Source: Candidatus Doudnabacteria bacterium
GTDB taxonomy: Bacteria; Patescibacteriota; Doudnabacteria; UBA920
DNA length: 64,000 nucleotides
NCBI GenBank assembly: GCA_016218585.1
Contig: JACRDK010000006.1
Coordinates: 1,823-65,822 of the forward strand
Direction of reading: 5' to 3'
The position numbers and the translations under genes are program-made. Every line of letters starts with the position of its first letter. The first letter of the stretch is position 1. The notes under the pieces were generated by a model, which did no database searches, was not told where the DNA came from, and saw only the letters and a list, made by a program, of their open reading frames with translations. Below, piece by piece: positions 3,534-56,000 of this stretch.

Positions 3534-3794
3534 ATGCAAAATTTTCCTGAAGTGCCGGAGAAAAAACCGGAAAAAAGCAAACAACAAAAAGCAGGCATGT
3601 TGCTGGTTGAAGCCGGCACCGAATTTGCCGTTATGATAGGCCTGCCTTTAATCGGTTTTATCTTTTTAGGCAAATGGCTTGATACTAAGTATCAACACCG
3701 TTTTTTTGTTGTTATAGGGATATTTTTGGCAATCGCCTTAAGTTCCTACATGATTTATAAAAAAATTCAACAAATTAAAGATTTATTGAAATAA
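3534..3794 (+). CDS. AtpZ/AtpI-like small membrane protein at head of atp operon
   Basis: 86 aa, two predicted TM helices, position immediately upstream of atpB. Confidence 0.45.
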   Translation: MQNFPEVPEKKPEKSKQQKAGMLLVEAGTEFAVMIGLPLIGFIFLGKWLDTKYQHRFFVVIGIFLAIALSSYMIYKKIQQIKDLLK

Positions 3795-4657
3795 TGTTAT
3801 TTTTACCCCCACTTAAAGCAGAAATACTATTCCAGATCGCAGGATTTCCCATTACTAACGCAATGGTAAATTCAATTTTGGCAACTGTATTGTTGGCAAT
3901 TTTTGCTTTCTTTTTAAACAAAGGGGTTAAAAAATACTACCCCAAAGGAAAAGCTCCTAAGGGTGTTTTGAATTTTTTTGAAGCAATTTTGGAATTTTTG
4001 CTCGGATATATTGATGGAGTTACCAAAGACAGAAAAAAAAGCTTAAAGTTCCTGCCGATTGTCGGCGGCTTGTTCCTGTTTATTTTAATCTCCAACTGGA
4101 TGGGACTACTTCCGGGCACGGGATCAATTGGTTTTTGGCATGGCGAAGAATTAGTGCCGTTGCTGCGGCCGGCTAATACCGATTTAAATATGACTTTGTC
4201 TATGGCCGTATTTGCGGTAATTTTGTCACACGTTTTTGGAGTGTTTACAATAGGCTTCTTTAAGTACGCCAACAAGTTTATAAAGCTTGGCGATTTGTAT
4301 CACGCTGTAGCCAGTTTGAACCCAATGAAAATGATGGTTGCCTTTATAGAATTTTTCGTTGGTTTAATTGAAATCTTCTCCGAGGGCGCGAAGATGGTTT
4401 CTTTGTCCTTGAGACTTTTCGGTAATATTTTTGCCGGTGAAGTTTTGCTCACGGTTATTGGTTCCTTAATTTCAGGCTATGGCGCATTTTTTATTCCTTT
4501 GCCGTTTATGGCTCTAGAATTAATAGTGGGAGTTGTTCAAGCTACCGTTTTTTCCATGCTTACTTTGGTTTATTTAACCATAGCCACAACCCCTGTTACA
4601 GACCACGCCGAAACGCATCATGTTGAAGCGGCGGAAGATCAAACTCCAACGGTATAA
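3794..4657 (+). CDS. atpB: F0F1 ATP synthase subunit a
   Basis: Conserved LRLFGNIFAGE...motif and polytopic membrane profile. Confidence 0.9.
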   Translation: MLFLPPLKAEILFQIAGFPITNAMVNSILATVLLAIFAFFLNKGVKKYYPKGKAPKGVLNFFEAILEFLLGYIDGVTKDRKKSLKFLPIVGGLFLFILISNWMGLLPGTGSIGFWHGEELVPLLRPANTDLNMTLSMAVFAVILSHVFGVFTIGFFKYANKFIKLGDLYHAVASLNPMKMMVAFIEFFVGLIEIFSEGAKMVSLSLRLFGNIFAGEVLLTVIGSLISGYGAFFIPLPFMALELIVGVVQATVFSMLTLVYLTIATTPVTDHAETHHVEAAEDQTPTV

Positions 4658-4823: not shown

Positions 4824-5042
4824 ATGGAAGCAGAAGCAATAACAGTATTGGCGAAAGCCGCAACTATCGCAATCGGCGGTATTGCCCCAGCCATTGCAAT
4901 TGGTAAAACTGCCAGCAAAGCTATGGAATCCATTGGCCGCAATCCGGAAAGCGCCGACAAATTGTTCGTCCCGCTGCTCTTGGGTATGGCTTTTGCCGAA
5001 GCTATCGCTATTTACGCGTTAGTCGTCACTTTCACACTTTAG
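4824..5042 (+). CDS. atpE: F0F1 ATP synthase subunit c
   Basis: 72-aa two-helix proteolipid, GxGxGxG-like AIGGIAPAIAIG and conserved acidic residue in helix 2. Confidence 0.9.
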   Translation: MEAEAITVLAKAATIAIGGIAPAIAIGKTASKAMESIGRNPESADKLFVPLLLGMAFAEAIAIYALVVTFTL

Positions 5043-5084: not shown

Positions 5085-5200
5085 AACTTAACTCGATCCG
5101 AATGTTTCGAATTATATCCGAATGCCCCGAATGGGAGCATTAGGATAACCTGCCTACCGGCAGGCAGGTTCGATGGCATTCGTAGATTAGAATCGTATTT
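5085..5200. repeat. CCGAAT/ATTCGG-word repeat element containing the 20-bp palindrome CCTGCCTACCGGCAGGCAGG (5149-5168)
   Basis: Related copies at 30244-30295 and 62985-63050. Palindrome copies at 27713-27732, 28731-28750, 53061-53080. Confidence 0.55.
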
Positions 5201-5202
5201 TT

Positions 5203-5757
5203 ATGAACTTACTTGATATTATTATTCCAATTGCCCACGCAGCGGAAGAACCGGCTGTTAAAGAAGGCGGCGTTGCCGTTTTAGGCATTAATTTAAAACT
5301 TTTCATAGCCCAACTAGTAAACTTTGCGGTAGTTTTGGGAATTTTGTGGAAATTTGTTTTCACCCCGGTTGCTAAACAGCTTCAGGCCAGAACAGAAAAA
5401 ATTGAAAAAGCAATGGCCGATGCCACCACCACCGAAAAAGAAAAACAGGAATTTGCGGTTTGGAAACAACAAGAAATTGCTAAAGTAAAAACAGAAGCCG
5501 GCAGCATTATTAGCAGCGCTCAAGCGGATGCCGGAAAAGTTAAGGAAGATTTGCTTAAACAGGCTAAAGAAGAACAGCAAAAGTTAATTGAACAGGGTAA
5601 GAAACAGATTGAACAGGAAAAAGCCCAAGCCTTACAGGCGGCAAAATCTGAATTGGCAGACATTATTACCACAGCAACAGAGAAGATACTTAGGGAAAAG
5701 TTAACTGGCGATAAGGACCAAAAACTTATCAAGGATTCTCTTAAAGATATTAAATAA
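5203..5757 (+). CDS. atpF: F0F1 ATP synthase subunit b
   Basis: N-terminal TM helix plus long charged coiled-coil, operon position. Confidence 0.8.
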   Translation: MNLLDIIIPIAHAAEEPAVKEGGVAVLGINLKLFIAQLVNFAVVLGILWKFVFTPVAKQLQARTEKIEKAMADATTTEKEKQEFAVWKQQEIAKVKTEAGSIISSAQADAGKVKEDLLKQAKEEQQKLIEQGKKQIEQEKAQALQAAKSELADIITTATEKILREKLTGDKDQKLIKDSLKDIK

Positions 5758-5764
5758 GTTTGTA

Positions 5765-5895
5765 AAATTAACCTAATTTCTAATTATTCTAAGTGCCCTA
5801 AACAAATTCCAAGCTCCAAACCTCAAACTTTAGGCATTAAACATTAAGAATTATTTAGAATAATTAGGTCAATTAGACTAATTAGAATAATTTAT
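5765..5895. repeat. ~130-bp inverted-repeat (MITE-like) element, copy 1
   Basis: Arms aaattaacctaattNNtaattattYtaagtgcYctaaaYaaa / ttatttagRataattaggtcaattagaMtaattaRaataattta are conserved with 10973-11104; the middle has diverged. Confidence 0.55.
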
Positions 5896-5896
5896 T

Positions 5897-6289
5897 ATGA
5901 AGTTCTCCTCCCAACAATACGCCCAAGCTCTTTACGACGCGGTTCACGAAACGAGCTCAAAAGACCACGATGTGGTTTTAGACAATTTTGTGAAGATTCT
6001 TGCCCAAGCCGGGGATTTAAATAAATATCCGGAGATTGAAAAAGAATATCACTTGCTGGAAATGAAAGAAAAGGGGATTAGCAGCGCGGAAGTTACGGTA
6101 GCTAAAGACATAGAAATTAACTCAGCGCTGATTGGCCAACTAAATGAGATTATCGGCAACAAAGTTGAAGTGAAAAAGAAAGTGGATGAAGGAATTGTTG
6201 GCGGAGTTGTGGTAAGAGTCGACGACACGCTAATAGACGCAAGCATAAAAACTCAGCTAGAAAGTTTAAATTCCGAATTAAAATCATAA
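5897..6289 (+). CDS. atpH: F0F1 ATP synthase subunit delta (short, 130 aa)
   Basis: Operon position between b and alpha. C-terminal VVGGVVVRVDDTLIDASI matches the delta C-terminal region. Confidence 0.7.
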   Translation: MKFSSQQYAQALYDAVHETSSKDHDVVLDNFVKILAQAGDLNKYPEIEKEYHLLEMKEKGISSAEVTVAKDIEINSALIGQLNEIIGNKVEVKKKVDEGIVGGVVVRVDDTLIDASIKTQLESLNSELKS

Positions 6290-6293
6290 ATTT

Positions 6294-6551
6294 ATGACTT
6301 CACCAGAAAAGGGTTCGTCTCCAGAATTTTCAGAACTTATTCCGGGTACACCTGTAAGAATAAAGGGTACTAGTGAACACCATATAAACCACGAATTTTT
6401 GCTTAATGGGATTACGGGTGTAGTTGTTGAGGTAAAGAATGACAAAGTTTTTGTCGCTTACAGAATACCAGGTGATTCAATACGAAGAGATAAAGCGCAA
6501 GAAACAATTCAACCTTTTGATCGCAGCGAAATTGAAGAAATTATTTCATAA
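6294..6551 (+). CDS. hypothetical protein inserted between atpH and atpA
   Basis: 85-aa ORF, tightly packed (5 nt after atpH stop). No recognised domain. Confidence 0.45.
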   Translation: MTSPEKGSSPEFSELIPGTPVRIKGTSEHHINHEFLLNGITGVVVEVKNDKVFVAYRIPGDSIRRDKAQETIQPFDRSEIEEIIS

Positions 6552-6689
6552 ATCTTATATCTTAAATCCTAAACGACAATCATTAATTATTAAAATATAG
6601 TTGTCGTCCTGAGCGAAGCGAAGGATCCCTTAATAAAGAGATTCCTCACTGCGTTCGGAATGACGCCGAGGATATTAATAAAAAATTTT

Positions 6690-8186
6690 ATGGCTCAAAA
6701 TATTGTAGAACAATTGAAAACTAAAATAACCGCCTTTCAACCGGGTGCGAAGGTTGAAAAAGTTGGCACGGTTTTGGAAGTTGGCGACGGCGTAGCTCGC
6801 GTTAGCGGCCTTACTCAGGTTGCCAGCATGGAAATGTTGGATTTTGGCAACGAAACTTTTGGCGTGGCGCTGAACTTAGAAGAAAACTTAATCGGTAGCA
6901 TTATTTTAGGCGACTATTTGCAAATTAAGGTTGGCGACACTGTTCGCGCCACCGGCAAAATTCTTTCTGTTCCGGTTGGTGAAAACTTAATTGGCAGAAC
7001 TGTCGGCGCATTGGGAAACCCGAAAGACGGCAAAGGCGCCATTGAAGCCAAGGCTTTTTATCCTGTAGAAAAAATTGCTCCCGGAGTTATTACCCGCCAA
7101 GGCGTAAGAGAGCCGGTGCAAACCGGAATTAAAGCCATTGACGCTCTTATCCCTATTGGCAGAGGCCAGCGTGAGCTTATAATTGGCGACAGACAGACCG
7201 GAAAGACCGCGGTAGCCATAGATGCCATCATCAACCAAAAAGGCCAGAATATGACCTGTATTTACGTTGCTATTGGGCAAAAAGAAAGCAAGGTTGCAAA
7301 AATTGTGGCCGAATTGGAAAAAAATGGCGCAATGGAATACACGATAGTTGTTTCCGCTTCCGCTTCTGAGCCGGCAGCATTGTCTTACATTGCTCCTTAC
7401 GCGGCAACCGCTATGGGCGAATATTTTATGGATCAGGGAAAAGACGTTTTGGTTGTATACGATGATTTGTCCAAACAAGCCGTAGCTTACCGTGAAATTT
7501 CTTTGCTCCTCCGCAGACCGCCGGGAAGAGAAGCTTATCCCGGAGATGTGTTCTATCTCCACTCACGCTTGCTGGAACGCGCTGCTAAATTGAATCCTGA
7601 TTTTGGGGGTGGTTCATTAACTGCTTTGCCAATTATTGAAACTCAAGCCGGAGATATTTCCGCTTACATTCCGACCAATGTTATTTCCATTACCGACGGG
7701 CAGATCTTTTTAGAAACAGATTTGTTTTATAAAGGCGTGCGCCCGGCTTTAAATGTTGGGTTCTCCGTGTCCCGCGTAGGAAGCGCGGCCCAAACCAAGG
7801 CAATGAAAAAAGTTGCCGGTAAATTAAAATTATCCTTGGCGCAATTCCGTGAATTGGAAGCCTTTGCCCAATTTGGATCTGACTTGGATGAAAACACAAA
7901 GCGTACTTTAGACTTAGGACGCAGAATGACAGAAATTTTAAAGCAGCCGCAATACCAGCCTTATTCCTTGGAAAAACAAGTTACTATTATGTATGCGGTT
8001 AACAACGGCTTATTCAATGAAGTTCCAGTAGAAAAAATGCCGGAGACTGAAAAAGCTTTTCACAAATATATGGAAGTTCAGGGCAAAGATGTCTTAAAAG
8101 CCATCCGTGAGACCAAAGAGCTTACCGAAGACACCGAGAACAAGCTGAAAGAAGCAATCAGCAACTTTTTGCAAACAGTAAAGTAA
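6690..8186 (+). CDS. atpA: F0F1 ATP synthase subunit alpha
   Basis: Walker A GDRQTGKT and alpha signature. Start set at the internal ATG (MAQNIVEQ), 30 nt downstream of the ORF-track start. Confidence 0.9.
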
Positions 8187-8266
8187 ATGACAAGATTGAC
8201 CAACAATGCCCTGCATAAAATCATGTCAATAATTTAAATCTTATTTAATCTTGTTCAATAGCCATT

Positions 8267-9142
8267 ATGCCCGGAATAAAAGAATTAAAAAACCGAATAA
8301 AAAGCATTGGTAGCACCCGTAAAATTACCCGTGCGATGCAAATGGTTTCCGCTGCCAAAATGCGCAAAGCCCAAAATGCAGCTCTAAACAGCCGCGTCTA
8401 TTCTGATTTAGCCTGGGAATTAATCCACAATTTGGCGCAAAAAACCCATTTAGAAAACCCTCTCCTGCAAGTTTTTCCAGAGGCAACAAAAACCGGGATA
8501 ATTGTTATTTCTACCAACAAAGGTTACGTAGGAAGTTTTAATACAAACCTGGCTAATAAGATAAAAGAAACGGAAGGCGTAGTAGAAAATGTAAATGCCG
8601 AACTGTTTGTGATGGGTAAAAAAATTAAAGAATACGCTGTCCGCTTAAACAAGAATTTGGCGGCAGATTTTCCAAAAAGCGACTCACTGGCCACGGTTGA
8701 AAGCATTTATCCGCTGGCAAAATTGGTAAGCGATCTTTACAAGACAGGGGAGTATAAATTTATTTCTATTGTCTTCAATAAATTTATTTCCACCATAAAC
8801 CAGAAGCCGGTAGCCAGACAATTATTGCCTTTTGCCGAAAGCTACATAAAAGATTCCCATTTTGTTGCCCCAAAAAATCCTCCCACGGAATATTTGTTTG
8901 AACCGGACCCTCATTTAGTTTTAGACAACCTTTTACCGAGAATTATTGAAAGCCAAATTTACCAGGCAATTCTGGAATCCGATGCCTCTGAACATTCCGC
9001 CCGTATGGTTACGATGAAAAACGCAACTGAAGCCGCTGAAGACTTAATTAGCGATTACACATTAACTTATAATCAGTTAAGACAGAATAAAATAACAACT
9101 GAGCTGGCGGAAATTACCGCCGGTAAAATTGCACTGGAGTAA
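8267..9142 (+). CDS. atpG: F0F1 ATP synthase subunit gamma
   Basis: N-terminal IKSIGSTRKITRAMQMVSAAKMRKAQ and C-terminal TAEL..I..G conserved helices. Confidence 0.85.
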   Translation: MPGIKELKNRIKSIGSTRKITRAMQMVSAAKMRKAQNAALNSRVYSDLAWELIHNLAQKTHLENPLLQVFPEATKTGIIVISTNKGYVGSFNTNLANKIKETEGVVENVNAELFVMGKKIKEYAVRLNKNLAADFPKSDSLATVESIYPLAKLVSDLYKTGEYKFISIVFNKFISTINQKPVARQLLPFAESYIKDSHFVAPKNPPTEYLFEPDPHLVLDNLLPRIIESQIYQAILESDASEHSARMVTMKNATEAAEDLISDYTLTYNQLRQNKITTELAEITAGKIALE

Positions 9143-9145
9143 GCT

Positions 9146-9487
9146 ATGAACGAATTTGAAGGCAGTGAAAACCCATTTAAGGATTTAGAAGAAAAAACCA
9201 AGCCTCATTACATCGAGGAAATGAGAAACTTCATACTTGTAGCTTACTTTGGAGAAGAAGTCTATAATAAATTTCTTGATTTAAATAAAGACTACGATGA
9301 AAGTGATGATCTCCTCAAAGAAGTAGGCAAGATGGAAAAGGACTTGGGGAATTTAGATTCAGAGGAACAACTTATTTCTTACGCAGAAGATCGTGGAATA
9401 CTTATTAGCGCGGAAGATTTAGCAATCATACAAAGCAGGGCATTAGATAATTTAAGCTTCGATTCATCATCGGAAGAAGAAAATTAA
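9146..9487 (+). CDS. hypothetical acidic protein inserted between atpG and atpD
   Basis: 113 aa, highly acidic. C-terminal half (LDSEEQLISYAEDRGILISAEDL) is weakly reminiscent of Nif11-type helical domains; low confidence. Confidence 0.45.
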   Translation: MNEFEGSENPFKDLEEKTKPHYIEEMRNFILVAYFGEEVYNKFLDLNKDYDESDDLLKEVGKMEKDLGNLDSEEQLISYAEDRGILISAEDLAIIQSRALDNLSFDSSSEEEN

Positions 9488-9556
9488 TAATTTATACCAT
9501 TCCTATAATGCTTAAGCAAGTCGAAGAATCCTTTGCTTGGGGATCGATATGGGTAA

Positions 9557-10966
<1,410 letters not shown>

Positions 10967-10972
10967 TCTTGC

Positions 10973-11104
10973 AAATTAACCTAATTATTAATTATTTTAA
11001 GTGCTCTAAATAAATACTAATCCCCAATTTATAAATATTTGACATTCAGTATTGGGTATTATTTAGGATAATTAGGTCAATTAGAATAATTAAAATAATT
11101 TACA
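10973..11104. repeat. ~130-bp inverted-repeat (MITE-like) element, copy 2
   Basis: Homologous arms to 5765-5895. Confidence 0.55.
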
Positions 11105-11127
11105 ATTTTATTTAGCAAACAAACAAC

Positions 11128-11580
11128 ATGAATAACATATCCTTTAAATTAGTAACCCCCGAACGCACTGTTCTAGACCAGGAACTGGTGAGTTTAACTT
11201 GTCCGACAACTTTAGGACAAATTACCATCCTGCCTGGGCACGCCAGCCTTGTGGCAACCCTTATTCCCGGGGAACTCCATGCCAGAACCGGCAAAGATGA
11301 CTTCTATATTTTTGTCTCCGGCGGATTTGTTCAAGTTAATCCAAACAGCGAGGTTATTGTTTTAGCAGACTCTGCCGAACATCATCACGAAATTGACCTG
11401 AAGCGCGCTGAAGAAGCCCGCGCCAGAGCGCAAAAAGCCCTTACTGAACAAAAACTTTCCGACGAAGAATATGCAAAAGTTGCCGCGGCGCTGGAAAGAA
11501 GCACTGGAAGATTAAATATAAAGCGCAAACACTCTCATAGAAAAAATCCTCTCGCCGGCGAAGCGGTGTTTAAAGAATAA
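11128..11580 (+). CDS. atpC: F0F1 ATP synthase subunit epsilon
   Basis: Beta-sandwich plus helical C-terminus, operon position. Confidence 0.85.
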   Translation: MNNISFKLVTPERTVLDQELVSLTCPTTLGQITILPGHASLVATLIPGELHARTGKDDFYIFVSGGFVQVNPNSEVIVLADSAEHHHEIDLKRAEEARARAQKALTEQKLSDEEYAKVAAALERSTGRLNIKRKHSHRKNPLAGEAVFKE

Positions 11581-12307: not shown

Positions 12308-12474
12308 CGGTAGAATAAATTTATAGTTAGTAAAAGACAAAACGGAAACGAAAATCCTTGGGGGAAAAAACAGAAAATATTTTTTAGCACTACTCTCTTG
12401 GGAATAAATCCCAAAGGTAGAAAATTAAGAAGAGTTGACCAAAACTAGTTGGCTCTTCAGGGAGACTAGCCCAA

Positions 12475-12552
12475 ATGGCTACAAAGAAAAAAGCGAAGAA
12501 AAAAGTCGCCAAAAAGAAGACCACAAAAAAGTCTTCTAAGAAGCGCGCTTAA
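12475..12552 (+). CDS. 25-aa lysine-rich micro-ORF (MATKKKAKKKVAKKKTTKKSSKKRA)
   Basis: GGGAG SD-like 10 nt upstream, followed by a terminator hairpin; below the ORF-track size cut-off. Confidence 0.3.
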   Translation: MATKKKAKKKVAKKKTTKKSSKKRA

Positions 12553-12577
12553 TCTTCCAAGCTCTAAAAAGAGCAGC

Positions 12578-12616
12578 AAAAATCATCCTCAAAACTAGGA
12601 TGATTTTTGTTTTTAG
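12578..12616 (+). terminator. rho-independent terminator (aatcatcct/aggatgatt + T-run)
   Basis: 9-bp stem, 7-nt loop, T-run. Confidence 0.5.
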
Positions 12617-12635
12617 AATGCCCAAGCAGTATCTT

Positions 12636-12664
12636 GCCAAATTTCAAAATATTAAGTATACTAT
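12636..12664 (+). promoter_or_regulatory. sigma70-like promoter for tRNA cluster (TTGCCA-17-TACTAT)
   Basis: -35 TTGCCA at 12636-12641, 17-nt spacer, -10-like hexamer ending ~15 nt before tRNA-fMet. Confidence 0.4.
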
Positions 12665-27474: not shown

Positions 27475-27712
27475 ATTCTTGACCCTAAGCTTGCCGGACG
27501 AGTAAAAAACTTGAATATATAATTGGGAGAATTAAGAATACTGAATTAAGAATAAAGGATACTGATAACAGATAGGGAAGTGCCAATAAATCTGTATAAA
27601 GATTGACACGGACTAAATTTTCCATTAACATATACGCAGTCTAATAAATCTTACGAAGTACCAAATAGATAAGAATGTACGAAGCGTCTATCTGTTTTAT
27701 TTCGTAAATCCG

Positions 27713-27732
27713 CCTGCCTACCGGCAGGTAGG
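27713..27732. repeat. 20-bp palindrome variant CCTGCCTACCGGCAGGTAGG
   Basis: Member of the 4-copy palindrome family, embedded in TACGAAG/CTTCGTA word repeats upstream of greA. Confidence 0.55.
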
Positions 27733-27760
27733 TAATAATTCGTACTTCGTAAATAAACCT

Positions 27761-28598: not shown

Positions 28599-28730
28599 AC
28601 ATACAATCATCAAAAACCGCTCTTTTTTGCTTAAAGGGGCGGTTTTTGTTATAATTATCTACAGAAATATATACAAATACTACAGAAACCTACAGACTAA
28701 AATAGTCTATTTTCTGTAGGCATCTGTAGA

Positions 28731-28750
28731 CCTACCTGCCGGCAGGCAGG
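28731..28750. repeat. 20-bp palindrome variant CCTACCTGCCGGCAGGCAGG
   Basis: Embedded in CTACAGA/TCTGTAG word repeats upstream of lysS. Confidence 0.55.
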
Positions 28751-28779
28751 TTAGTATTAATTCGTAATTCAGTAGAAAT

Positions 28780-45268: not shown

Positions 45269-45304
45269 CATTCCGCTCATTCACGGCCGTGAATGAGCGG
45301 AATG
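45269..45304. repeat. perfect 36-bp palindrome cattccgctcattcacgg|ccgtgaatgagcggaatg
   Basis: Shares 22-bp core ctcattcacggccgtgaatgag with 45860-45893. Abuts the stop codon of the PaaX-like gene. Confidence 0.6.
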
Positions 45305-45826
45305 TTATAAATTAAACATCTTTCTAAGGTCTTTATCGTTATCCATCTCTTCAACCTTTATAATTCTTATAAAATTAATTAGCTTTGTCTCAGTTAAATA
45401 TTGTATTGCATCCCTGTTTAAGGGGTAAGGACTAATGAAAACACTAGCCTGAAGCTTTTTAAAATTGTTTTTCTTAAGCATCCAACGAAAATGATCCCGT
45501 AAATGATGGAAGCTTTCCGGGATGTCAAAAATAATGACCCTCCACTTCCCATCCCAATTTTTTGCAACATCTAGCCCTGCTTTTTGCAGCAATTTTTCCA
45601 ATTGCCCCTTGTTGGTAATTTTTAAAAACTTCTGGTCATTTTTTTTAATAATTTTTAAATACCCCGAACGGTTCATTTTCCACAGCGCATTAGTGTATTT
45701 GTCCCTGGTAAAACCTCTAAGGTTTTTCCTCTTTGCGAAATCATACAAACTTTCCAACGGCAAAAACGGAGTGTCAAGATCCAGACACTCGAGAACCAAA
45801 TGAACAAAAGGCCCATAACGATTCAT
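45305..45826 (-). CDS. PaaX-family-like transcriptional regulator (short form)
   Basis: WDGKWRVIIFDIPESFHHLRDHFRWMLKKNNFKKLQASVFISPY matches the PaaX C-terminal signature (WDG.W...F..PE...R...R..L...GF..L...VW..P). Confidence 0.55.
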   Translation of the reverse strand: MNRYGPFVHLVLECLDLDTPFLPLESLYDFAKRKNLRGFTRDKYTNALWKMNRSGYLKIIKKNDQKFLKITNKGQLEKLLQKAGLDVAKNWDGKWRVIIFDIPESFHHLRDHFRWMLKKNNFKKLQASVFISPYPLNRDAIQYLTETKLINFIRIIKVEEMDNDKDLRKMFNL

Positions 45827-45859
45827 ATAAATTGACTGTCGCTTTTATTTAAAAATTAA

Positions 45860-45893
45860 ATTCACCTCATTCACGGCCGTGAATGAGGTGAAT
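45860..45893. repeat. perfect 34-bp palindrome attcacctcattcacgg|ccgtgaatgaggtgaat
   Basis: Second copy of the cattcacggccgtgaatg core, between the CPA2 gene stop and the PaaX-like gene. Confidence 0.6.
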
Positions 45894-45894
45894 G

Positions 45895-52900: not shown

Positions 52901-53060
52901 TATTAAATTTATTTGTTTATAACTCTCACATTTGTGAATTTTATGAACAACTGTTTATGTAAAAAATAATCCTCGAGAGATTCTTCATCCTCTGATGCGC
53001 TTACCCGGACTCAGAATGACGCCGTGCATTCATCCGCGCAATCTGTGTTTATCTGTGATC

Positions 53061-53080
53061 CCTGCCTACCGGCAGGCAGG
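53061..53080. repeat. 20-bp palindrome CCTGCCTACCGGCAGGCAGG (copy 4)
   Basis: Identical to 5149-5168. Lies 5 nt beyond the dnaE stop codon. Confidence 0.55.
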
Positions 53081-53085
53081 CGCGA

Positions 53086-56000
53086 TTAACTAACATCTAT
53101 CATCACTATTTCCGGAACATTGTGCAGCTCTTCCATTAAATCATTGCTCATACCCACCAGGGTTTGGGTTTTTATTTTTTTGGAGCGGGCGCCGGTGCCA
53201 ACGGACAAATAAACCTGCACATTGCCCGGATGTTTTTCCAAAATATTTTTAATGCTATTTAACGCGGCCATATTTACCAGGCTATCCATGTGTAAAATTA
53301 ACTGCTTATTTTTTTCCATCTCATTTAATGCCATTCCATAAAGTTCGTCGTTAGGCAATTCTTTAATTTCATCGGCAATTAATTTAAACTCTTCATCTTT
53401 ATCCGATAGCCGTCCCGAGACCTGGACTATTTTATCATCCGCCAAAAACGGTAATGCTTTTTCCATAACTTTAGGAAAAACCAGCACCTCTACGCTGCCG
53501 GTAACATCGGACAGGGTAAAAAATGCCATTGGGTCGTGTTTTTTGGTAAGCGTGCGCTTAAGCCGGGAAATTATGCCTCCCATAACCACGTTAGCGCCCA
53601 ACTCATCCAAACTCAAACTCTTTACATTGCGCATATTGCCCAAAACTTTTCTATAAACATCCAGCGGATGAGCGGAAACATACATTCCCAAAAGCTCCTT
53701 CTCCCACAATAGCATTTCTTCTTTAGTAGCCGCGGCCGCGGGTTTTAACTTCAGCTTTCCGGCTGTGTATGCGCCGCCAAACAGAGACCCTTGCTCGCTG
53801 TTTACATCTTTATAATATTGGCGAATAAAATTTAAAACTTCTTCCGTGTTGTTGAGCAACTGACCTCTTTCGCCAAAGGCATCCAGCGCTCCAACCTTGC
53901 ACAAAGCTTCCCAGGATTTTTTATTCAAATTTTTTGTGTAAGTCCGAATTAGCAAGTCGTCTAAATCTTTAAACTTCCCGCCTGCTGCGCGCTGCTCTAT
54001 TATTTTGGCTATAACATCATTGCCTAAATTTTTAATGGCGTTCAAACCAAAACGAATATTTTTCTCATCTACCACGGTAAAATCTCCCAGAGATTCATTT
54101 ACATCCGGCGGCAGCACAGCAATGCCAAGAGCTTTACAGTCTTCCACTGCTTCGTAAATTTTGTCTTCATCGCCGGATTCAGCGGTCATTAAAGCCGCCA
54201 TAAACTCCACCGGATAATTTGCCTTCATATAGGCCGTCTGGTAAGACACCACGGAATAACTGGCCGAGTGCGCTTTGTTAAAACCATAGGCGGCAAACGG
54301 CTCAATCCAGGCCCAAATATCTTCGGCTTTTTTATGGCTCCACTTGGAAGTTTCCTGGCATCCCTGAATAAATTTAATTTTCTGCTTAGCCATTTCTTCC
54401 GGAATCTTTTTTCCAACGGCTTTTCTAAACTTGTCTACTTCTTCCCAGGAATAGCCGGCCAAGTCGTGCGCAATGGAAAGCAAATCATCCTGATATACCA
54501 AAATTCCGTAAGTACGGCGCAAAATCTTTTCAAACGCCGGATCAAAATAGGTAATCAGCCCGGGGTTATGTTTGCGGCGAATATATTCTTCAATAAATTG
54601 CATCGGACCGGGGCGATACAAGGCTATCATAGCCATAATATCAAAAATGCTCGACGGCTGAAGTTCTTTTAAGTGTCTGGTCATTCCCGAGGAACCCAAT
54701 TGAAACACCCCAAAAGTTAAACCTTCGGATAACAGCTTAAAAGTTTTAGGGTCGGGATGGGGGAGATTATAAATATCAATATTAATATTGTGTCTGGCTT
54801 GCACCAAATTTACCGCGGTTTCCAAAATGGAAAGGTTGCGAATTCCAAGCAAGTCCAGCTTAACCACGCCAATAGCGTGTGAAGACGCGTTCACGTCGAG
54901 CGCGTACATGTCGTACTGGGTAATAATTCTTTCCCCGTCCGGTTCTTTTTGCAGCGGAGTGTAATCGGTAAGGTCCGTCGGGGTTATAACAATTCCGGCC
55001 GCGTGCACCGAAGCATGTCGGGCGCAGCCTTCTAGTTTTCTGGCAATAGTTAATACGCGTTTGGTTTCCGGATCGTGGTCATAAATTTCTTTTAATTCCG
55101 CATTCATATCCAGGGCCTTGTCCAAAGTCATATGAAAACCCTGTTTGCCTATGGGAATCATTTTTGCAATTTGGTCGCACTTGGAATAGGGGACGGCCAG
55201 AGCGCGGCCAACATCGCGCACCGCAGCGCGGGCCATCATAGTTCCAAAAGTAATAATTTGCGCGACTTTTTCCTTGCCATATTTTTGCGTAATATAAGCA
55301 ATGGCTTCGTCGCGGCGGTTATCGGCAATGTCCAAGTCAATATCCGGCGGGGTTGGGCGATGCATTGTTAAAAAACGTTCGAACGGCAATTCATAATACA
55401 GCGGATCAACATTGGTAATTCCTAAAATTCTTCCCACAATGCTTCCGGCAGCGGAGCCTCTGGTGTTGGTAATGGCGCCAATGCTGTGCGCGCCCTGAAC
55501 CACGTCGGCCACCATTAAAAAGTAAGTGTCAAAACCTTTTTTACAAATAATATTTAACTCGTAATCTATGCGCTCTTTAATCGCGTCCGACAATTGGCCA
55601 TTTTCGCCATAAAGCGGCAGAGCTTTTTCATAAGTTACCTGGCGAAGATACTGCTCTGTGGTCAAGCCTTCCGGAATTTCCACCTGAGGGAAGTAGCGCT
55701 GGTCAATGGCAATTTCCGTATTGCACATATCCGCAATCTTTTGCGTATTAGAAATTGCTTCCGGGACATCGTAAAATAATTCTTCCATTTTTTCCGGAGA
55801 CTTTAGGGACAGATCATAAGCGCGCATATCTAAACGATCTTCGTCGTTAACGGTTCTGCCCGTGCCAATACAAACCATAACATCCTGCGCCTCGGCGTCT
55901 TCCGGATAAATATAGTGGCAGTCCGCGGTAGCCACCAGGCCCAAACCGTTTGCTTTAGCTAAAGCAATAAGTTTGTTATTTAATTCCGTTTCTTTAGGGT

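Follow-up and report, generated by a model that had tools for sequence, protein, structure and literature searches.

The operon for the F-type ATP synthase in a Candidatus Doudnabacteria bacterium (GenBank assembly GCA_016218585.1, contig JACRDK010000006.1, positions 1,823 to 65,822 of the forward strand) raises the question of why two of its spacers, atpF–atpH and atpD–atpC, are long and resemble each other. A sequence-only reading of this stretch of DNA (64,000 nt in full, hereafter the window, in whose coordinates positions are given unless another locus is named) had described an inverted-repeat element of ~130 bp, similar to a miniature inverted-repeat transposable element (MITE), that is present twice in the operon and whose copies would form RNA hairpins and could act as processing or attenuation sites. 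We consider it probable that the two copies (A and B) are old, partly decayed members, lacking an open reading frame (ORF), of a family of palindromic insertion cassettes found throughout Patescibacteria, and that they are most likely tolerated selfish DNA.

Two copies of a palindromic element in the atp operon

The element forms a direct repeat of two copies, 5765–5894 (copy A) and 10973–11102 (copy B), each 130 nt long and alignable without gaps at 79% identity (repeat search; MAFFT agrees), with boundaries confirmed by the family profile described below. The arms are conserved and the centre has diverged, as had been read from the sequence: the copies agree at 34 of 38 positions in the left arms and 35 of 38 in the right arms, compared with 34 of 54 in the centres. 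The arms are also mutually complementary, although imperfectly: in copy A the best inverted pair covers 24 nt and matches at 88%, in copy B it covers 27 nt and matches at 81%, and several alternative pairing registers exist because the arms are periodic. In copy A the AATTAG cores are 9 nt apart (5862, 5871 and 5880) and CTAATT cores are found at 5773 and 5780; the cores of copy B are at 11070 and 11079. Unit order and spacing are more degenerate in both copies than in typical members of the family.

Both copies fit tightly between genes whose identity was confirmed by Pfam. Copy A occupies the atpF–atpH spacer, beginning 7 nt past the atpF stop codon and ending 2 nt short of the ATG of atpH; copy B begins 6 nt past the atpD stop codon and ends 25 nt short of the ATG of atpC. 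Neither contains an ORF of at least 50 aa, so that in being small, non-coding and bounded by terminal inverted repeats they have the size and ends of a MITE. The arm patterns are found at these two sites only within the window, where 0–0.13 matches are expected by chance, and repeat, arm-pattern and profile searches returned no further copies elsewhere in it. The observation of a repeated, inverted-repeat, ORF-less element in these two spacers is confirmed.

A family of elements across Patescibacteria

A scan of GTDB species, each represented by one genome, with the 18-mer ATAATTAGGTCAATTAGA, a sequence found in the right arms of both copies, gave at least 120 loci. Among the matches listed, nearly all are from Patescibacteria and represent about 20 candidate phyla (the labels include Saccharibacteria, Zambryski-, Yanofsky-, Magasanik-, Kuenen-, Nealson-, Falkow-, Staskawicz-, Portnoy-, Harrison-, Doudna-, Berkel-, Shapiro-, Curtiss-, Roizman- and Daviesbacteria, WWE3, Paceibacteria and Minisyncoccales), and single metagenome-assembled genomes (MAGs) have at least eight 18-mer loci each. 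76 elements could be delimited, and they fall into two size classes: 60 are miniatures (77–212 nt) and nine are 440–570 nt long.

For a profile hidden Markov model (HMM; nhmmer, 130-nt consensus), 48 miniature elements were taken from other genomes, the window being excluded. The model matches copy A over model positions 2–129 of 130 (E-value 1e-20 on the + strand and 5e-21 on the - strand) and copy B end to end (2e-15 and 7e-17, respectively), and has no other match in the window at E<=10. Copies A and B belong to this patescibacterial family of palindromic elements with arms made of 9-mers.

The plan of the family is simple: the left arm consists of 9-nt CTAATTNNN units (e.g. AATTATTCTAATTAACCTAATTGACCTAAATAA), the right arm is its inverse, and these terminal inverted arms are about 35–60 nt each; inside them lie conserved inner arms (AAATCCCAATG ... 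CATTGGGATTT) around a centre that is variable and usually self-complementary. Arm cores are spaced by 9 nt in 204 out of 266 cases and by 7 nt in 31, and the units are drawn from a small 'vocabulary' that is common across phyla. Of the 69 elements with both flanking genes called, 60 have co-directional neighbors, and the elements typically lie 0–25 nt from the upstream stop and the downstream start. Centres reach 85–93% identity within one genome (the between-genome median is 51%); such near-identical centres point to recent copying inside genomes.

No conserved rRNA motifs were found in the retrieved loci (at least 120). Rfam gave only tRNAs for the window at the gathering threshold, no match for 5600–11300 at E<=5, and no match at E<=1 for the delimited elements of three other loci (L024, L075 and L013; here and below, L numbers label retrieved loci). 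A weak sraL match near an element (L075, 778–935) scored 21.9 bits, below the gathering score of 39, and was dismissed as a likely chance match. A phage vector was likewise considered and rejected: the IMG/VR viral contigs gave one 18-mer match, which looks like chance as well.

We also observed real elements or cassettes on contigs labelled as Gammaproteobacteria (L015, L045, L057, L081 and L120), Melioribacteraceae (L032, L056 and L110), Bacteroidales (L069) and WOR-3 (L139–L141). These labels reflect either mis-binning or mislabelling of contigs, or transfer across phyla.

Full-length members and their four-helix-bundle gene

Full-length members of the family (about 440–570 nt) have a gene for a protein of 120–127 aa, assigned to PF05635 and TIGR02436, between the same arms as the miniatures. 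For example, an element between mreB and mreC (L013) holds a 125-aa ORF that matches PF05635 ('23S rRNA intervening sequence protein', 2.4e-12) and TIGR02436 ('four helix bundle protein', 2.8e-19). By tblastn this cargo gene is found at 16 of the seeded loci, mostly directly beside the 18-mer. The inner left arm closes with the start codon of the gene (...AAATCCCA-ATG), and the right arm begins no more than a few tens of nt past the stop codon. Wherever flanking genes were called for a delimited large element, the gene is co-directional with them. The miniatures retain the outer and inner arms as well as the first few bases of the ORF, and would be internal-deletion derivatives of the full-length form.

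To avoid the circularity of motif seeding, we also searched with the cargo protein only. At least 7,979 protein clusters match this strongly conserved protein, the best 120 of which are all at least 73% identical, whereas housekeeping proteins such as the ATP synthase gamma subunit drop to about 60%. Four loci were picked by protein similarity only, and in all of them the gene lies between the same arms and is co-directional with its neighbors in operons for type IV secretion, in ArsA pairs and in an aminotransferase cluster. PF05635 paralogues of other subfamilies (L131, 2150–2509; L142, 1786–2130) carry their own, different inverted arms, and this suggests subfamily-specific pairs of protein and arms; that is, comparison of these loci hints that each PF05635 subfamily may have its cognate arms. 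The two paralogues are located in type IV secretion operons (L131, 2060–2560; L142, 1700–2170), with arm units of TAGGGTTTAGCG... and GCTAATAGCAAAT..., respectively.

Comparison with the atp operons of relatives

The atp operons of four relatives were retrieved via their AtpG proteins. The atpF–atpH and atpD–atpC spacers, which are 139 nt and 161 nt in the window, measure 110 nt and 307 nt in L001 (AtpG identity 86%), 66 nt and 26 nt in L002 (73%), 32 nt and 25 nt in L145 (73%), and 82 nt and 2 nt in L143 (66%). At E<=0.1 the element profile matches nothing in any of these four atp regions; copies A and B are lineage-specific insertions. They are not ordinary conserved operon spacers, the alternative that the sequence-only reading had set against its own: the element is absent in four out of four. 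In L001, the closest relative, the place of the element in the atpD–atpC spacer is taken by an unrelated, strongly hydrophobic 79-aa ORF without a Pfam match (12425–12664). The empty site of L002 is too diverged to define the insertion junction, and no filled and empty pair was found within the same species.

At the atpF–atpH junction, which is the boundary between the F0 and F1 genes, hairpin-forming inserts are present in L001 (7636–7745, folding z -3.4; apparently unrelated) and L143 (3779–3860, z -3.1; unrelated). The ends of the L143 insert (GTGTCATCC...GGATGACAC) resemble another palindromic repeat, found near elements of MAG BP7.bin63 (L034, L112 and L115). The L001 hairpin shows scattered ATTAG similarity to copy A in an alignment, with a family HMM E-value of about 5 only. 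A hairpin at this junction is not conserved, since the L002 and L145 spacers at the same junctions are unstructured or short, and the junction seems to be a permissive site of recurrent insertion, which fits these spacers better than a structure that the operon has to conserve.

Folding and alternative explanations

Hairpins are predicted for both copies, as had been proposed, but they are weak. As RNA of the operon strand, copy A has a minimum free energy (MFE) of -21.1 kcal/mol (z about -2.2 to -2.1) and copy B one of -21.8 kcal/mol (z about -1.2 to -1.1); folded as DNA, they have z-scores between -0.9 and -3.3, depending on copy and strand. From the end of the predicted stem to the start codon there are 14 nt at atpH and 26 nt at atpC, so that the initiation regions would stay open. 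A promoter or terminator reading was rejected: no such sites resembling a consensus are found on the operon (+) strand of either copy, and regional site counts are not above those of shuffles. With folding only marginally better than that of shuffles, with this result and with the strand symmetry given below, the processing or attenuation role that had been suggested finds no support in these two sequences.

The strongest competing explanation, although one we regard as unlikely, is that the copies are functional RNA: sites internal to the operon for processing or stabilization, cut by RNase III or acting as barriers to 3' exonucleases in the manner of repetitive extragenic palindromic (REP) sequences, which would split the atp mRNA at atpF|atpH and before atpC and tune subunit stoichiometry. 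It would account for both copies being in co-transcribed spacers of one operon, and canonical members of the family do form very stable hairpins (median z -5.9, a value biased upward by the selection of the set for complementary arms) with an architecture equal to that of the intervening sequence (IVS) elements of 23S rRNA that are processed by RNase III. Some element-bearing patescibacterial genomes encode RNase III, and the unrelated atpF–atpH hairpins of L001 and L143 could be read in the same way. However, copies A and B are the weakest folders of the family, and in two of the relatives the corresponding spacers are short or lack structure. Selection on the transcript should moreover leave a strand bias, as G-U pairing would favor the transcribed strand; among 50 operon-embedded copies, the sense strand has the lower MFE in 23 and the antisense strand in 27 (Wilcoxon p=0.36). 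This lack of bias makes the palindrome look like a property of the DNA of the element and argues against selection on the transcript.

A homologue of rnc, the gene for RNase III, was observed in five of about 120 seeded 8-kb loci (L010, 5155–5797; L045, 3902–4616; L071, L074 and L086), where roughly one would be expected by chance on our own estimate. The 18-mer of L010 and the element of L045 are directly upstream of rnc, an arrangement that could also be read in favor of a processed RNA.

Still less probable, in our judgement, is that the arms are arrays of protein-binding sites at the DNA level, in which the CTAATTNNN units would be iterated sites for the four-helix-bundle protein or for a nucleoid or regulatory protein, with a regulatory or roadblock role. 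The strict 9-nt periodicity of the cores, the common vocabulary of units, the symmetric behavior of both strands and the distinct periodic arms of other PF05635 subfamilies would all suit such cognate pairs; but the four-helix-bundle gene is absent from the window, unit order and spacing are degenerate in copies A and B, and the element is absent at orthologous sites in relatives, so that no conserved regulatory need is evident.

That ordinary AT-rich spacers resemble each other by chance or local duplication, without a wider family, is refuted: AT-rich, low-complexity sequence and a count of two in the window speak for it, but it fails on the rarity of the arm patterns by chance, the E-values of the family HMM, the 18-mer at 120 or more loci of other genomes and the absence of the element from the relatives' atp operons. 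We give equally little credence to a guide-RNA array of the CRISPR-like or tandem interspaced guide RNA (TIGR-Tas) type, to which short periodic units with variable triplets might point and which is common in Patescibacteria. TIGR systems do occur in Patescibacteria (PMC12045711), and their arrays are made of tandem 36-nt units that combine two spacers of 8–12 nt with either box C/D motifs or edge and loop repeats, next to a Tas gene with a Nop domain (PMC12045711); here the period is 9 nt with three variable positions, the arms are inverted and the neighbors are atp genes, and a TIGR-Tas array is rejected on anatomy.

Origin and fate of the copies

Tolerated selfish DNA thus remains our preferred explanation, and a history of the following kind would agree with it. 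Two intergenic spacers of the atp operon, both short and permissive, would each have received a copy of the element after the split from the relatives that do not have it; the copies would then have diverged to their present identity while their hairpins weakened. They would be co-transcribed with the operon, leave the AU-rich starts of atpH and atpC, which have no Shine-Dalgarno motif, unpaired, and have little or no regulatory role. If a copy were active, its transcribed arms could form a double-stranded stem, be cut by RNase III and segment the atp mRNA; the best-founded analogy here is with the classical 23S rRNA IVSs, which are alike in architecture.

Several points weigh against this explanation. 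There are only two copies within 64 kb, and the window contains neither rnc nor, by tblastn, a four-helix-bundle gene. No target-site duplication is visible at the 76 delimited elements or at copies A and B (a cryptic AATT or AA/TT duplication is possible), neither a transposase nor a recombinase accompanies the family, and the cassettes have no transposase domain; we infer its mobility only from its distribution, from presence and absence, and from near-identical copies within genomes. The deletion origin of the miniatures, likewise, is deduced from shared arms and inner arms, without a traced intermediate. The element set was seeded by one exact 18-mer and then filtered for complementary arms, and for this reason the hairpin z-scores and context statistics of the family are biased to canonical members. 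Finally, the neutrality of the copies is an argument from absence, and tight placement in essential operons of many lineages could also mean function.

As to the wider family, it appears to be an IVS-type four-helix-bundle cassette, with its miniatures, that invades operons across the streamlined, gene-dense Patescibacteria. A more tentative proposal, which we put forward as a possibility and hold with much less confidence than the selfish origin of the two copies, concerns the class: the PF05635 protein, a four-helix bundle with no recognized catalytic domain, may bind its own 9-nt-periodic arms, as DNA or RNA, and drive or control the spread of the cassette and its miniatures into operon spacers across Patescibacteria and occasionally other phyla, with copies A and B as relics of what would be an as yet undescribed class of mobile or regulatory cassette.

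For the operon at hand, two odd, long spacers of an essential operon are explained as insertions of selfish DNA and not as conserved regulatory RNAs, which should temper their functional annotation. More generally, the arms recur at hundreds of sites in about 20 candidate phyla, almost always within operons. The enigmatic PF05635 family of IVS proteins is linked to a cassette with recognizable ends and to miniatures, and this offers a comparative and biochemical approach to two questions, the mobility of IVS-type elements and the function of their protein. A family profile would also improve the annotation of patescibacterial MAGs (e.g. the distinction of spacers from gene calls, and contig breaks at repeats).

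Features of the operon and other repeats

Table 1. Positions of copies A and B, their parts and the genes of the atp operon in the window
Feature	Position	Strand	Evidence or remark
Copy A, whole miniature palindromic element	5765..5894	.	direct repeat; family HMM match 5766-5893
Copy A left arm, AAATTAACCTAATTTCTAATTATTCTAAGTGCCCTAAA, CTAATT / CTAAGT units	5765..5802	.	34/38 identical to copy B; 24 nt at 88% complementary to right arm
Copy A central region, diverged	5803..5856	.	34/54 identical to copy B centre
Copy A right arm, AGAATAATTAGGTCAATTAGACTAATTAGAATAATTTA	5857..5894	.	holds family 18-mer ATAATTAGGTCAATTAGA at 5860-5877
Copy B, whole miniature palindromic element	10973..11102	.	direct repeat; family HMM match 10973-11101
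Copy B left arm	10973..11010	.	arm pattern, alignment, inverted pairing
Copy B central region	11011..11064	.	own short internal complement TAATCCCCAAT / ATTGGGTATTA
Copy B right arm	11065..11102	.	holds family 18-mer at 11068-11085
atpI-like	3534-3794		Pfam scan of operon
atpB	3794-4657		Pfam scan of operon
atpE	4824-5042		Pfam scan of operon
atpF (F0 b subunit), upstream of copy A	5203..5757	+	PF00430, E 1.6e-21
atpH (delta/OSCP, 130 aa), downstream of copy A	5897..6289	+	PF00213, E 3.4e-22
85-aa ORF, no family	6294-6551		between atpH and atpA
atpA	6660-8186		Pfam scan of operon
atpG	8267-9142		Pfam scan of operon
113-aa ORF, no family	9146-9487		between atpG and atpD
atpD (beta), upstream of copy B	9602..10966	+	PF00006 / PF02874
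atpC (epsilon), downstream of copy B	11128..11580	+	PF02823 / PF00401

The F-type ATP synthase operon itself was confirmed by Pfam (Table 1). AtpH is only 129–131 aa long in these Doudnabacteria and matches the C-terminal two-thirds of the model of the oligomycin sensitivity-conferring protein (OSCP) alone (positions 62–172). The 85-aa ORF downstream of atpH has a counterpart in L001 (8143–8397, 84 aa) and is absent from L002, L145 and L143. No Shine-Dalgarno motif was found upstream of atpH; such motifs are scarce in the window (12 out of 57 long ORFs, even with loose 4-mer patterns), and AU-rich sequence precedes the starts.

The atpG–atpD spacer (9143–9601) is 459 nt long and contains the 113-aa ORF, which is very acidic; this spacer is 59–133 nt in L001, L002 and L145, and has a different 79-aa ORF in L143. 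The insert is another lineage-specific insertion in the atp operon. We considered the 113-aa ORF as a degenerate cassette and rejected this, as it has no Pfam match and its flanks have no recognizable inverted arms.

Two other palindromic repeats were observed in the window. One is a GC-rich palindrome, (A/C)CCTGCCTACCGGCAGGCAGG(T), a second repeat family with four intergenic copies (5148–5184 in the atpE–atpF spacer, 27712–27748, 28730–28766 and 53060–53096), which may represent a terminator hairpin or a repeat of the REP kind. It is also nested in a 9-mer-arm element of an unrelated MAG (L008, about 6480–6500) and therefore may be widespread in Patescibacteria. The other is a near-perfect palindrome of ~34 nt, ATTC(C/A)(G/C)CTCATTCACGGCCGTGAATGAG..GAAT, whose two copies (45269–45308 and 45855–45894) bracket a minus-strand gene (45305–45826). 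Heptamer repeats 'TTAATTC' (41722, 61534 and 62773) are inside coding regions and were set aside as unrelated.

Comparison with known systems

No published description of the element family was found in the literature searched, although other journals may hold one. Parts of it, however, resemble several known systems. Avd (accessory variability determinant) of diversity-generating retroelements shares its Pfam family or clan with the cargo protein, and one L131 paralogue also weakly matches PF22296 (bAvd). Avd is a small, basic four-helix bundle that binds nucleic acids. The cassettes differ from Avd genes in that they stand alone and are flanked by inverted repeats, with no adjacent reverse transcriptase, template repeat or variable repeat.

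As intergenic palindromic repeats inside operons, the elements are similar to REP sequences and their bacterial interspersed mosaic elements (BIMEs) with REP-associated tyrosine transposases (RAYTs), and to enterobacterial repetitive intergenic consensus (ERIC), repeat unit of pneumococcus (RUP) and BOX repeats. Intergenic palindromes of the REP type can stabilize mRNA. REPs are GC-rich palindromes of 20–40 nt tied to a Y1 RAYT gene, whereas the members of this family are about 130 nt long, AT-rich, built from 9-mers and tied to a PF05635 gene; the flanks of the elements showed no RAYT (no whole-genome RAYT search was made).

The likeness to MITEs, including the Correia elements of Neisseria (Neisseria miniature insertion sequences, NEMIS), is closer. 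The miniatures are small (77–212 nt), ORF-less and interspersed in a large family, with terminal inverted repeats, a larger partner with the same ends and genome-specific subfamilies, and they are inserted in, and co-transcribed with, operons. According to De Gregorio et al., Correia hairpins in mRNAs are reportedly RNase III substrates. The sequence of the family is unrelated to Correia, however, and it is spread over many candidate phyla; moreover, it shows no target-site duplication, and the partner encodes a four-helix-bundle protein and not a transposase. 'MITE-like', the term of the sequence-only reading, therefore holds as a description of size and ends, and strict membership among MITEs is not established for want of a target-site duplication and a transposase partner.

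The IVSs of 23S rRNA are the other close parallel. The 428-nt IVS of Coxiella, which has terminal inverted repeats that form a 28-bp stem and contains a PF05635-type ORF, is cut out by RNase III and considered a horizontal acquisition (PMC4990558); PF05635 ORFs have also been noted in rRNA insertions of bacteria from the Candidate Phyla Radiation (CPR) (PMC11270868). Like the IVSs of Leptospira and Coxiella, full-length members of the family have terminal inverted repeats that can form a long stem and a PF05635 ORF of ~120 aa inside, the sizes of both being about 430–570 nt, and both have a sporadic, horizontal-looking distribution and are co-transcribed with the host gene. ORF-less IVSs, as in Salmonella, have their counterpart in the short versions of the family, the form that copies A and B represent with weakened stems. 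The family differs from 23S rRNA IVSs in its location, which is between the genes of protein-coding operons (for example atp, mreBC and type IV secretion) and not in 23S helices 9, 25 or 45, and in its 9-nt periodic arms, its eight or more loci in a single MAG and its phylum-wide spread. By analogy with the IVS stems, it is possible that copies A and B are RNase III substrates. If cassettes do pair a PF05635 protein with cognate arms, the classical rRNA IVSs would be a special case of a larger, operon-invading family, and the role of the IVS protein would become testable.

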